Source: Escherichia coli (GTDB lineage Bacteria; Pseudomonadota; Gammaproteobacteria; Enterobacterales; Enterobacteriaceae). Taken from it: a DNA stretch of 64,000 nt. Where the stretch lies: assembly GCF_045037415.1 (NCBI RefSeq), contig NZ_CP173438.1, one strand, 5' to 3'. Below are positions 26,301 to 32,300 of the stretch, one piece after another. The position numbers are program-made. Position 1 is the stretch's first letter, and each line of letters opens with the position of its first letter.

Positions 26301-29300
26301 TGCGTTCCAAACTATATTGTTCTACTGAGCCAGTGTACGACTTCTGGAGCTATTTCAAAACCTCGGTACGCTATCAGTCTTCTCAGGAAGCAACAACTGG
26401 CCAGTAAAAGGGGCCGCAGCCCCTAAAACTTATTATACTAAGCCTGAGCTCGGCATCCATCTAATTAGCTATATTGAATGACTGCACGACCGCGAATTCC
26501 GCCACTCAGAAGTTTTTCAGCCACAGTGATGGCGTCACTGAGCGGATAAACGGTAGTGAGACTATCCATTCTGGACTCTGGCAAATACTATACCGCCTGT
26601 TGCCAGATTGCTGCTCTTTTCTCTTTCGCGAACATGACGCTATCAATCCCTTTCAGCGTGACACCACGCAGAATAAACGGAGCCATATTGCCCATCAAAT
26701 CCATCCCCTGAGCCATGCCGCAGGCTGCAACAATACTGCCATATCGGACCCCGGCGCAGGCATTTCTCCAGTAACAGGGGGTTGTATTGTATTGTATTTT
26801 ATTGTGCCGGTTCAGGTGTGCGTTTCCCGGCGCGTCTGCACCGGCTTAACCAAATTCAACAGGGATAAAATAGTGCAAATAACCGAAGTATTACTTGCAG
26901 TAATCGGGGGAAGCATCCGGGGTTTTATTCAACAGGCTGTAGATCACTGACTGCGTCTGTTGGCCGTCCACTTCACGCGTCATTCGACCAGAGTAAATAT
27001 TGATGATTACTAGATTCGTGTATTTTATCAGGCATTTTACTTGCGAATAAATCCCCTTGCTATCCAGCGAAACCACACAGGTAGCTATTACCATATGTGG
27101 TAATACACTAGTTACAGGAAAAATATGCAAGTTCCGCAATACGTTGTGTGTTGCTCCTTAGCCAGGATCTTTTCTTCCATGCGAGATATGACAACAATTT
27201 TGAGGAAGGATGTTCGTAACTGGTAGAGTTACTACAACAAGCATGGGAGGCTCTGACTCTGACAGACATTGTACTGTGGAATGTTGTTACAGGTTGGGGC
27301 GGCAACCGTGCCAGGAAACCATGAGCCGTTCACGGCATTAAAGGCCACACTTCAGTCGTTTACATTCCCTATGGTGGCAGGCATCTTCCATTAAGGCGTC
27401 AGAGCGTTACCAACGTTATGTTGTCATGGCTCATCTTTCATAGTCGATGCTTATCTGGTGGCTGAAGCTAGCCGCAGATAAAGAGTGTGAAGTTGATACC
27501 ATGGAGTGGAGTGACGTGCAGGCAGGAGATTCGCTCTATGCAGGGTTGTGAGATGAATTCAAACCGGCTGGCAGCGCCAGTGATATTCGAAGATTCGTCC
27601 GGTTGTTACCCAGTATGCATTAAAAACCCATACATTATGGACAATATAACGGCTTCTACAACAAGGAAGTGCCTGTTTACCATCCGGGTGTAATGACTCA
27701 CCTTTGTGGGCTTTTGCCCGTCGCGCTCTTAACGTTGAAGACATTCTCTGCCTGCCGATTCAGGACTGCGACAAAAGCCATATCTGGCTACTGGTCAAGG
27801 ATGACCAGCGTCTGGAGTAGGTGATAAGCCAAATAGATAAGCTGGAATATGTGGTGAAAGTGCAACGTAATCAGTCCAACCCGACGATGTTTAACAAGAT
27901 TGTGGTGTTTTTTCAGTAAGTCATTCGTCTTCTGAATCAGGTGTAATGATCTTTACAGAACCATTCTGGCAGTGCGTAACATAATCTGCCGGTAACGGAC
28001 GATCGCTAATCAGAACGTCAAATGCAGAGATCGGTGCGAGGCTGGCAGAGGCCACTTCATCGAACAACGCGTGGCGGGCGAGCAAAATTTTCCGTAGTCC
28101 ACGGTTCATCGCTTTACGCTTAGTGGCAAGATCTTCAGGGTTAAACCAGCTGACGCCAAAGTGATTATGCACACCGCTGGCGGAAATAAATATTTTTCGC
28201 GGATTGAGAGAGTCTAATGGCGAAGAGTTACTGGCATCGTAAAAAGCATCACTTCTGGCACGATACGTACCACCACAAAGTATTGCTGTTACATTAGGCT
28301 TTTCATTCAACGCAACAAAGACGCGATGTGAGTAACAGATGCCGGTGAAGGTGATTGCATCCGGAATCATGCTTATAACGAGTGGTATCTCCTGGCCATT
28401 ATCAAAGAAGATCAGATCATTTTCATTAACCATTCCGGCAGCCAGAATTGCAATAGGTAAGTCATCACGATGATTTTTTGGAACGTCATGGATTACTGGC
28501 ATGGATGGCGCGGGTTTATTCACCATTACAATATAGCCACCCAGTAGGGTCAGTGGCAGAGGTTCATCTTCCTGATGGAGATCGCGACGAATAGTCATTA
28601 CAGAAACTTCCAGCATTCGCGCTGCGTCTTTCAAATGGATTCTGTCGGTTTTCTTAAGCAGTTCCATCAAACGTCGGATACGCTCTTTTTGCTTCGTTTC
28701 CATCAACTCTCTCTCCGTAAGAATGTTATAAAAATAACATTTTGGCGTTAGTAAACATTGTTTTCATTACCATACTATACGACCGCCCCTTTGAAATGAA
28801 AAGGGTATAGGCTGCTGAGTTTTGGGCACTAATCTTGTTAGGTTGCTTATGATTAGATAGTGTTGGCCTGAGTGATGAGACTGGAAGTCTATTAAATAAA
28901 CATCGGGTTGATGTGCTAATCGCGATCTCAGTCACAAATGATGCAAAAGTAACATGCTAATGTTATTTAAATACCATTGTTATGCGAAAGTTTATAAGAG
29001 GTAGTGAAATGGACATTGCAGTTATTGGTTCCAATATGGTGGATCTCATTACTTACACTAATCAGATGCCTAAAGAAGGAGAAACTCTGGAAGCACCTGC
29101 CTTCAAAATCGGATGTGGTGGGAAAGGTGCTAATCAAGCGGTGGCGGCGGCTAAATTGAATTCAAAAGTCCTGATGCTGACTAAAGTAGGTGATGATATT
29201 TTTGCGGATAATACTATTCGTAATCTTGAATCATGGGGAATTAATACCACTTATGTTGAGAAGGTCCCCTGTACCAGCAGTGGTGTTGCACCGATCTTTG

Positions 29301-32300
29301 TTAATGCCAACTCGAGCAATAGTATATTAATAATTAAGGGAGCGAATAAATTTCTTTCCCCGGAAGATATCGATCGAGCTGCAGAAGATCTGAAAAAATG
29401 CAAATTGATCGTTTTACAACTGGAAGTTCAACTGGAAACAGTTTACCACGCGATTGAGTTTGGTAAGAAAAATGGTATTGAAGTGTTATTAAATCCGGCT
29501 CCGGCATTGCGTGAGTTAGATATGTCTTATGCCTGCAAATGTGATTTCTTTATCCCGAATGAAACAGAACTGGAAATATTAACCGGTATGTCGGTTGATA
29601 CTTATGATCATATTCGTTTGGCCGCACGTTCGTTAGTTGATAAAGGGCTGAACAATATTATTGTTACCATGAGCGAAAAAGGCGCATTATGGATGACCCG
29701 CGATCAGGAAGTCCATGTTCCTGCATTCAAAGTAAATGCTGTTGATACTAGTGGCGCTGGTGACGCATTTATTGGTTGCTTTTCCCATTATTATGTTCAA
29801 AGCGGTGATGTTGAAGCCGCTTTGAAAAAAGCCGCTCTCTTTGCCGCTTTCAGCGTCACAGGGAAAGGTACGCAATCATCTTATCCGAGTATTGAACAAT
29901 TTAATGAATTTTTAACCTTAAACGAATAATCATCCTGCACAGTTAAAGGTAGCACTATGAACGATAAAAACATCATTCAGATGCCTGATGGGTATCTGAA
30001 TAAGACTCCCTTGTTCCAGTTTATTTTGTTATCGTGTTTATTCCCGCTATGGGGATGCGCAGCTGCATTAAATGACATATTAATCACTCAATTCAAAAGT
30101 GTATTTTCGCTAAGTAACTTTGCTTCAGCATTGGTGCAGAGCGCATTTTATGGAGGTTATTTTTTAATTGCAATACCAGCATCCCTTGTGATTAAAAAGA
30201 CCAGTTATAAGGTGGCAATTTTAATTGGCCTGACGCTGTATATTGGTGGTTGTACACTTTTTTTCCCTGCCTCGCATATGGCAACCTACACTATGTTCCT
30301 TGCAGCTATTTTTGCGATTGCGATTGGCCTGAGTTTCCTTGAAACTGCAGCGAACACATACAGTTCAATGATCGGTCCAAAAGCCTATGCCACATTGCGG
30401 CTCAATATCAGCCAGACCTTTTATCCGATTGGTGCTGCGTCTGGTATTTTATTGGGCAAATATCTGGTTTTCTCCGAGGGGGAAAGCCTTGAGAAGCAGA
30501 TGTCCGGAATGAACGCCGAGCAAATTCACAACTTTAAGGTGCTGATGTTAGAGAACACCCTTGAACCGTATAAGTATATGATTATGATTCTGGTTGTGGT
30601 CATGGTGTTGTTCCTTTTAACCCGCTTCCCAACCTGTAAAGTGGCACAGACAAGTCACCATAAACGCCCGTCAGCAATGGATACGCTGCGCTATCTGGCT
30701 AAAAATTCGCGCTTTCGTCGTGGTATTGTGGCTCAATTCCTTTATGTGGGTATGCAGGTCGCAGTATGGTCATTTACCATCCGTCTGGCACTGGAGTTGG
30801 GCGATATCAACGAACGTGATGCTTCAAACTTCATGGTCTACAGCTTTGCCTGCTTCTTTATTGGCAAGTTTATAGCCAACATCCTTATGACACGTTTTAA
30901 TCCGGAAAAAGTCCTAATTCTCTATTCCGTTATAGGGGCGCTGTTTCTGGCATATGTTGCACTGGCTCCAAGTTTCAGCGCGGTCTATGTCGCCGTCCTG
31001 GTAAGTGTTTTGTTTGGCCCTTGCTGGGCGACGATCTATGCAGGAACACTGGATACAGTTGATAATCAACATACAGAAATGGCAGGAGCAGTCATTGTTA
31101 TGGCTATTGTTGGCGCAGCGGTGGTTCCGGCAATTCAGGGGTATATTGCAGATATGTTCCACTCACTACAGCTTTCATTCCTGGTTTCTATGCTCTGTTT
31201 TGTCTATGTCGGTGTCTACTTCTGGCGTGAAAGCAAAGTACGTAATGCACTGGCTGAAGTCACAGAGTCCTGAGGAGAATCGTTATGAGTACGCGTATTT
31301 ATTTGTGGCGGGCGCTTTTTGGCGAAAAACCTCGTATCTTGCTGGAAAATAGTGATTTTACTGTCACGTCTTTTCGCTATGACAGTGGTGTCGAGGGGCT
31401 TAAAATTGCAAACAGTCGTGGACATTTAATTATTCTTCCCTGGATGGGGCAGATGATTTGGGATGCGCAATTTGATGGACACAGTCTCACCATGTGCAAT
31501 ATGTTTCGCCAGCCTAAACCGGCGACAGAGGTGATAGAAACCTATGGCTGTTTTGCCTTTCATTCAGGTTTGCTGGCTAATGGCTGCCCATCTGCGGAAG
31601 ATACTCATCTGCTACACGGTGAAATGGCCTGTGCCGCGATGGATGAAGCATGGATGGAATTAGAGGGAGATATGTTACGCCTTACCGGGCGTTACGAGTA
31701 TGTAATGGGGTTCGGGCATCATTATCTGGCTCAGCCAACAGTGGTCCTTCACAGATCCTCTACATTGTTCGATATTAAGATGGCCGTAACCAATCTGGCT
31801 TCTGTAGATATGCCACTACAATATATGTGCCACATGAATTATGCATATATACCAAATGCTACGTTCAGCCAGAATATACCGGACGAAATATTAAGGTTGC
31901 GTGAATCAGTACCTTCGCATGTTAATCCCACCGCTCAGTGGCTGGCGTTTAATCAACGGATTATGCAGGGAGAAGCCTCTCTGTCGACGCTGAATCAACC
32001 GGAATTTTATGATCCAGAAATAGTCTTCTTTGCAGACAAACTGGACGCTTACACAGATCTGCCAGAGTTTCGCATGATCGCTCCCGATGGCACTACGTTT
32101 GTTACTCGTTTCTCCAGTGCCGAACTAAATTATGTGACACGCTGGATCCTTTATAACGGCGAGCAACAGGTAGCCGCCTTTGCATTACCTGCAACCTGTC
32201 GGCCTGAGGGGTATCTTGCCGCGCAACGTAATGGCACGCTGATTCAGGTTGCACCGCAGCAAACACGCACTTTTACAGTCACCACAGGAATTGAATAACC

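Follow-up and report, generated by a model that had tools for sequence, protein, structure and literature searches.

A stretch of 64,000 nucleotides of the Escherichia coli contig NZ_CP173438.1 (assembly GCF_045037415.1), called here the window, carries four adjacent genes for a DeoR-type regulator, a PfkB kinase, a FucP-like permease and a mutarotase-like protein, and the locus raises the question of which sugar they serve, whether they are still in working order, and how they came to lie on a genomic island. An original prediction, made from the DNA alone, had proposed a deoxyribose utilization module of the deoQ-deoK-deoP-deoX type on the leuX island. Judged from sequence comparison, the region is with a probability of about 93% an intact copy of the deoK operon of E. 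coli (the deoQ-deoKPX regulon, by which 2-deoxy-D-ribose is used) on the leuX island of a strain of the sequence type 131 (ST131) type. The deoQ-deoKPX system is already known and is widespread in E. coli, and it is intact here. Details that are new at this locus are the relics of ilvN and uhpA that flank it, the Escherichia-like identity of the ilvN relic, three operator candidates and a fold model of DeoX.

Deoxyribose released from degraded DNA is a nutrient in the gut. The deoQKPX regulon was described in Salmonella enterica (Christensen et al., 2003, J Bacteriol 185:6042; Tourneux et al., 2000, J Bacteriol 182:869; both as cited in PMC2808357 and PMC13432705), and the deoK operon of E. 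coli was first described on the afa-8 island of AL862, at a tRNA-Phe gene (Bernier-Febreau et al., 2004, Infect Immun 72:6151; as cited in PMC5382810, PMC7545054 and PMC6452873). According to the papers that cite this work, the operon is linked to the competitiveness and intestinal colonization of pathogenic E. coli (Bernier-Febreau et al., 2004; Martinez-Jehanne et al., 2009; cited in PMC7924626 and PMC5382810). It is a recognized fitness factor, of which an intact copy is documented here in an ST131-type strain.

All four genes are present in the predicted orientations, with the regulator divergent from the other three, and the proposed outer limits of the module, 27921 and 32298, are exact. 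The list of open reading frames holds a frame of 260-261 residues at 27921-28706 on the minus strand and plus-strand frames at 28982/29009-29929, 29957-31273 and 31285-32298. Two starts were settled with an alignment of the locus from 12 taxa, including Salmonella, Citrobacter, Cedecea, Raoultella, Leclercia and other E. coli variants. The ATG of deoQ at 28703 is conserved in the aligned species and is also the RefSeq start; a TTG at 28706, which would give 261 residues, is not conserved and was rejected. The ATG of deoK at 29009 is preceded by an invariant ribosome-binding site, AAGAGG, at 28996-29001, and the upstream ATG at 28982 (315 residues) was rejected, other species showing a GTG and then a TGA at that place.

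The identity of the module with that of Salmonella is borne out by comparison of the proteins with the S. enterica locus, which was located through an exact match to the sequence of a Salmonella DeoP protein. Both loci have the same gene order, and the amino-acid identities are 84.0% for DeoQ, 96.1% for DeoK, 95.7% for DeoP and 83.6% for DeoX. The paralogues in K-12 are far more distant: DeoR is 38% identical to DeoQ, RbsK 36.5% to DeoK, and FucP 36% to DeoP. In S. enterica, the order is ivbL-ilvB-ilvN, deoQ on the opposite strand, deoK-deoP-deoX and uhpABCT. The two loci share the divergent layout, the terminator hairpin after deoX and conserved operator-like sites and sites resembling those of the cAMP receptor protein (CRP), but the Salmonella genes lie in the chromosome between intact ilvN and uhpA, whereas here only decayed stubs of both flank the module, on the leuX island. 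The intergenic region between deoQ and deoK also differs, with 305 bp here against 324 bp in S. enterica, and its central part does not align. Beyond Salmonella, the same order of deoQ and deoKPX was found in 67 of 80 species loci, a set that took one genome per species, did not include the S. enterica representative genome, and was followed by tblastn.

The regulator has as its best NCBIfam match the DeoR model PRK10681, with 230 bits just under the cut-off of 244, and exact-sequence look-up returned one source, E. coli O25b:H4, in which it is named deoQ. For the kinase, which matches PfkB of Pfam and belongs to the ribokinase class, the same kind of look-up gave the UniRef name Deoxyribokinase (representative Q707I2_ECOLX). 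This, together with the identities given above and a change in the sugar-binding site, supports the proposal that it is a deoxyribokinase and not a ribokinase or fructokinase. In RbsK, Asn14 is a ribose-contact residue that touches the 2'-OH. At the aligned position DeoK has Met10, within the motif GSNMVD that is present in 83 of 83 DeoK orthologues. A Met10 to Asn change has reportedly been tested. The other sugar-binding and catalytic residues of RbsK, namely Asp16, Gly42, Lys43, Asn46, Glu143 and Asp255, are conserved in DeoK as D12, G38, K39, N42, E139 and D252; the RbsK sequence used was verified as 100% identical to PDB entry 1gqt. When K-12 was selected on deoxyribose, 15 of 16 colonies carried RbsK N14D or N14S (PMC6452873).

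Some observations weigh against a deoxyribose module. DeoK passes the ribokinase equivalog model TIGR02152 (369 bits, cut-off 299.65) and is named rbsK in RefSeq; Salmonella DeoK also phosphorylates ribose and can support growth on it (PMC13432705); DeoP passes the fucP model TIGR00885 (323.7 bits, cut-off 280.4) and is named fucP in RefSeq; and no residue-level equivalence was found between DeoX and the catalytic His, His and Glu of galactose mutarotase (GalM), hhalign against E. coli GalM giving a probability of 0.4% and no usable alignment. The points on the kinase would suit a second ribose module, in which the kinase would be a ribokinase, the permease would import ribose and the mutarotase-like protein would take the part of RbsD. 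Such a module is very unlikely, as DeoK does not pass the E. coli-type ribokinase model PRK11142 (251.9 bits, cut-off 341), has lost the Asn14 contact in all orthologues and is far closer to Salmonella DeoK than to RbsK. Furthermore, carriers gain growth on deoxyribose, while K-12 already grows on ribose, and in distant taxa the cluster is accompanied by deoC and not by rbs genes. The deoC gene lies within the orthologous cluster in Providencia, Moellerella, Proteus, Pasteurellaceae, Aeromonas and Bacillus methanolicus, and since the kinase clade travels with it, the clade is read as one of deoxyribose kinases. The tblastn probe for DeoC was an E. coli sequence 8 residues shorter than expected, and its matches were confirmed with TIGR00126, against which the cluster genes score 243-314 bits (cut-off 117).

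In about 1,600 complete E. coli genomes, the NCBI pipeline labels DeoK as "rbsK ribokinase" and DeoP as "fucP L-fucose:H+ symporter permease", since the two proteins pass the broad models TIGR02152 and TIGR00885. Such labels can mislead metabolic reconstructions and are a likely source of error.

The deoxyribose reading agrees with the phenotype of carriers. At a DNA identity of at least 95%, the module occurs in about 1,595-1,626 of 5,426 complete E. coli genomes. In Nissle 1917 it is 97.9% identical and the DeoK protein is the same (WP_000350265.1); this strain grows on 2-deoxy-D-ribose, which K-12 does not, and the authors credit deoQKPX (PMC7924626). Enteroaggregative E. coli 042, which has deoQKPX homologues, likewise grows on 2-deoxy-D-ribose, unlike K-12 (PMC2808357), and Salmonella strains that lack deoK cannot grow on deoxyribose (PMC13432705). 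In the proposed pathway, DeoP would import free deoxyribose as a FucP-like proton symporter, DeoX would probably speed the interconversion of its ring forms or anomers and so free the 5-OH, and DeoK would convert the sugar to deoxyribose 5-phosphate. The core aldolase DeoC of the host would then cleave this to glyceraldehyde 3-phosphate and acetaldehyde. The deoC gene lies outside the window and is present in 5,423 of the 5,426 genomes; as a core gene, it makes the aldolase available to complete the pathway.

Table 1. Genes, predicted regulatory elements, relics and island landmarks of the deo locus, numbered from the first letter of the window
Feature	Position	Strand	Basis or remark
deoQ, DeoR-family repressor, 260 aa	27921..28703	-	HTH_DeoR and DeoRC domains; Salmonella orthology
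deoK, deoxyribokinase, 306 aa	29009..29929	+	PfkB; UniRef name; Salmonella orthology
deoP, FucP-like deoxyribose permease of the major facilitator superfamily (MFS), 438 aa	29957..31273	+	MFS_1 and fucP-type NCBIfam model
deoX, DUF4432 protein of galactose-mutarotase fold, 337 aa	31285..32298	+	Pfam PF14486; AlphaFold2 model
Operator candidate O1, ATGTTATAAAAATAACAT	28723..28740	.	Perfect ATGTT-N8-AACAT palindrome, between deoQ promoter and deoQ start
Candidate deoQ promoter	28774..28802	-	Promoter scan; -35 TTTTCA, 17-nt spacer, -10 TATAGT (28774-28779)
CRP-like site, AATCGCGATCTCAGTCACAAAT	28918..28939	.	Consensus match at 14 of 22 positions; perfect TCACA half-site
Operator candidate O2, ATGATGCAAAAGTAACAT	28938..28955	.	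ATGTT-N8-AACAT pattern
Operator candidate O3, ATGTTATTTAAATACCAT	28960..28977	.	ATGTT-N8-AACAT pattern; overlaps candidate -10 box GCTAAT (28956-28961) and deoKPX transcript start
ilvN relic (acetolactate synthase small subunit), decayed 3' end, 241 bp	27679..27919	+	Adjoins deoQ stop codon; RefSeq pseudogene
Intrinsic terminator, GC-rich 12-pair hairpin, then seven T	32319..32352	+	Stem 32319-32347
uhpA relic, decayed 5' end, ATG and about 60 bp	32371..32432	+	1-bp deletion; homologous to uhpA of K-12 and Salmonella up to about 32432
ISEc23 (IS66 family)	32539..36517	-	8-bp target duplication CAAAAACT at 32531-32538 and 36518-36525; context, outside the module
ISEc45 (IS110 family)	~32759-34187		Nested within the ISEc23 transposase gene
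leuX, tRNA-Leu(CAA)	47745..47829	-	Island attachment site; context

The 305-bp region between deoQ and deoK holds the predicted control elements (Table 1). The pattern ATGTT-N8-AACAT, with at most one mismatch, occurs five times in the 64 kb, where 2.8 matches are expected, and three of the five lie inside this region. The arms of O1 are invariant in the 12-species alignment, and those of all three sites are invariant or nearly so. O2 and O3 are spaced 22 bp start to start and together extend over the probable -10 box of deoKPX and the region where its transcript would start. On the deoQ side, the ACTATA block of the candidate promoter, whose position is predicted, is invariant across the aligned species. 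These patterns suggest that DeoQ would repress deoKPX through the three candidate operators and probably its own gene as well. The CRP-like site is centred about 41 bp upstream of the predicted transcription start of deoK, and its core, ATCGCGATC..GTCACAAATG, is invariant in the 12 species, which suggests that it may add catabolite control of deoK. This layout fits what has reportedly been described for S. enterica, where DeoQ has three operators, DeoR acts as a further repressor and deoKPX is subject to catabolite repression.

At its edges, the module is bounded by the remains of two genes. The relic of ilvN carries an in-frame TAG and a 1-bp deletion. On the other side, the operon had been predicted to end in a clean terminator directly before a nested insertion sequence (IS) structure; the terminator is real, but about 185 bp separate it from the IS, a gap that contains the uhpA relic (62 bp) and shared island sequence (about 105 bp). 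Only one other terminator-like site was seen in 5.3 kb, and the 70 nt around the present terminator fold at -25.4 kcal/mol (z = -2.6). Its hairpin is not peculiar to the deo operon, as the same one follows ilvN in the ilvBN-uhpA interval of K-12 and deoX in Salmonella. In K-12, this terminator comes straight after the stop codon of ilvN and precedes uhpA, so that the difference from K-12 is the exact gain or loss of deoQKPX between two TAA stop codons. A scan of 26000-38500 with Rfam found no RNA family in the module; its only match, described below, resembles AfaR, is sub-threshold and lies beyond the IS.

The condition of these surroundings bears on whether the operon still works. With the ilvN and uhpA relics, a truncated enzyme IIC gene of a vpe-type phosphotransferase system (PTS), a truncated integrase and the pair ISEc23 and ISEc45 downstream, the module might be taken as silent or decaying, one more remnant of an island filled with IS and pseudogenes. 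This too is highly improbable, since its four reading frames are full length, with counterparts of 100% identity in many ST131 genomes, and the promoter, operator candidates, ribosome-binding site and terminator are intact and conserved. The deo genes also differ by only about 2% between the E. coli island variants (ST131, Nissle-type and F5656C1), against 8-12% for the adjoining ilvN relic. Because of this difference, the module lineages are suggested to be about as old as the species and the deo genes to be under purifying selection.

DeoP matches MFS_1 of Pfam. That it and the mutarotase-like protein would form an uptake module for L-fucose or another 6-deoxyhexose, as the fucP model and name might have it, is scarcely credible, given its closeness to Salmonella DeoP and its low identity to K-12 FucP, a score of 285.7 bits against the E. 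coli-type FucP model PRK10133 (cut-off 427), a cluster without fucI, fucK and fucA (the annotation of the locus shows no fuc genes near deoP) and a partner kinase of the ribokinase and not the FGGY class.

Within the deoxyribose operon, the role of DeoX is the least direct to assign. It matches Pfam DUF4432 (PF14486) with 56.8 bits (cut-off 32.5), RefSeq calls it an aldose 1-epimerase family protein, and its family is small, with 479 clusters at E ≤ 1e-3 among 1.84 billion representatives. No relatives of 84%-97% identity were found among 5.8 billion sequences. The AlphaFold2 model, built from a 62-sequence alignment, has a predicted local distance difference test score (pLDDT) of 96.8 and a predicted template modelling score (pTM) of 0.94. 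In Foldseek its best match is PDB entry 3ty1, with a template modelling (TM) score of 0.82 and an E-value of 1.2e-15, followed by the GalM proteins of B. subtilis, L. lactis and human at E-values of 1e-10 to 1e-8; the yeast galactose mutarotase was matched too. As judged from this model, the term mutarotase-like is right at the level of the fold. A sequence search of the PDB gave no match, and a profile search gave 3ty1 only (E-value 8.5e-18). This closest solved relative is KPN_04629 of Klebsiella pneumoniae, a "putative aldose 1-epimerase" from structural genomics without assigned function; its identity to DeoX is only about 14%, and the profile alignment places ALPAT in DeoX where 3ty1 has IEPGT. 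The histidines His93, His111 and His183 are invariant in the DeoX family.

A kinase of this kind acts on the 5-OH of its sugar, which is occupied within the pyranose ring. For this reason, and by analogy with what RbsD does for ribose, DeoX probably speeds the interconversion of ring forms or anomers, freeing the 5-OH. The likeness to RbsK and RbsD extends to the pairing of a kinase with a helper for the ring form, and DeoK keeps the PfkB ribokinase fold class, the catalytic Asp and most sugar contacts. The differences are that DeoX is a GalM-type beta-sandwich unrelated to RbsD and that an MFS symporter stands here in place of the ATP-binding cassette (ABC) system. With its confident fold model, the putative role of DeoX is open to experiment.

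The flanking relics also speak to the origin of the module. In loci of other species, ilvN lies next to deoQ in 33 cases, in 20 of which uhpA also follows deoX; the interval between ilvN and uhpA is the usual chromosomal home of the deo module in Enterobacteriaceae (Salmonella, Citrobacter, Raoultella). In E. coli, no module was found at this native site in the five contexts inspected, which were not exhaustive (ST131, A4, F5656C1, Nissle and MS 16-3), and all of these are island copies with the relic. The lesions of the ilvN relic are identical in the ST131, Nissle, A4 and F5656C1 variants, and its left end is common to three of them, the F5656C1 copy being cut further by IS3. As the relic bears the same lesions in all the variants, a single capture may be deduced, and the relics would give the module a dated, single-capture history in E. 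coli.

A recent origin of the E. coli module from S. enterica is stated in PMC5382810, citing Bernier-Febreau et al. (2004). At the DNA level, the ilvN relic shares 90.1-90.5% identity with ilvN of K-12, 81-84% with that of Citrobacter and Pseudocitrobacter, and 75-77% with that of Salmonella. The deo genes themselves are 76-82% identical to those of Salmonella, no higher than the 80.8-85.4% between the neighbouring core genes of K-12 and Salmonella. An ilvN relic that is Escherichia-like and deo genes only this similar to those of Salmonella make a recent transfer from Salmonella unlikely, and a chromosome of the Escherichia lineage is the most likely source. In the history proposed, a 4.75-kb piece (27679-32432) would have come out of the interval between ilvN and uhpA in an enterobacterial chromosome, entered an island on a single occasion with stubs of ilvN and uhpA still attached, and then been inherited within E. 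coli islands. The native copy would have disappeared through a deletion with its ends exactly at the stop codons of ilvN and deoX. The odds are about even for a joint reading in which the module came from an Escherichia-lineage chromosome and not by recent transfer from S. enterica, and in which DeoX, as a functional analogue of RbsD with a GalM fold, would convert the ring forms or anomers of deoxyribose and supply DeoK with the furanose.

The location on the leuX island was confirmed, with the tRNA-Leu(CAA) gene, a truncated tyrosine recombinase (integrase) gene at about 47097-47558 adjoining it, and the core genes ahr, yjgR, lptGF and pepA beyond. Many E. coli isolates from humans, several of them labelled ST131, match the 4.8-kb module region at 100% identity, and positions 24000-48000 of the window are 100% identical to the strains IPCEC48 and IPCEC42. 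The annotations of these two strains and of strain 4/4 place the module in a mosaic island, with fecIRABCDE, IS remnants, a BCCT transporter and a TetR regulator on the island side. The nested IS structure downstream of the operon is as predicted, with ISEc45 inside ISEc23. The insertion of ISEc23 lies 241 bp after deoX and leaves the operon untouched; the island of Nissle has neither element, and strain 4/4 has ISEc23 without ISEc45.

Compared with the AL862-type deoK operon, the one described here is the same operon, likewise island-borne and linked to a vpe-type PTS, but it lies at leuX and not at tRNA-Phe, its vpe IIC gene is truncated, and the composite ISEc23::ISEc45 follows deoX. The remaining piece of this IIC gene, of the PTS ascorbate family, lies at about 37206-38081 (minus strand). 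In Nissle, A4 and MS 16-3, intact IIC and IIB genes and then IIA follow directly downstream of the deo module, the IIA of MS 16-3 being cut off by the end of the locus, and the LacI-type regulator is also seen in Nissle and A4. A linkage of deoK and vpe was reported for NCTC 86 (PMC5382810).

Just past the right end of ISEc23, at 36610-36699 (minus strand), is the sub-threshold match to the small RNA AfaR (RF02515), with 42.5 bits against a gathering threshold of 100, an E-value of 1e-4 and coverage of model positions 26-119 of 234. AfaR belongs to the afa-8 island of AL862, which is also a carrier of the deoK operon (PMC7545054), and the match may be a shared island remnant.

Elsewhere on the same island, a complete ferric citrate uptake system, fecIRABCDE, lies at about 11562-19107, between remnants of IS1 and of the IS3 family. 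The stretch of about 1.2 kb from the TetR-family gene to the ilvN relic (26474-27678) is without an intact gene, only a 108-bp "alcohol dehydrogenase" fragment being annotated, and from about 26834 to the relic it is common with the Nissle-type island. Between the vpe remnant and leuX, at about 38698-44731, is a putative sugar-acid cluster, with genes for an MFS transporter, a PdxA-family dehydrogenase, a UxaA-family hydrolase, a dihydrodipicolinate-synthase-family protein and a divergent IclR regulator. On the core-genome side, beyond rraB, stretches of low G+C content (0.32-0.39) occur at 59000-64000.

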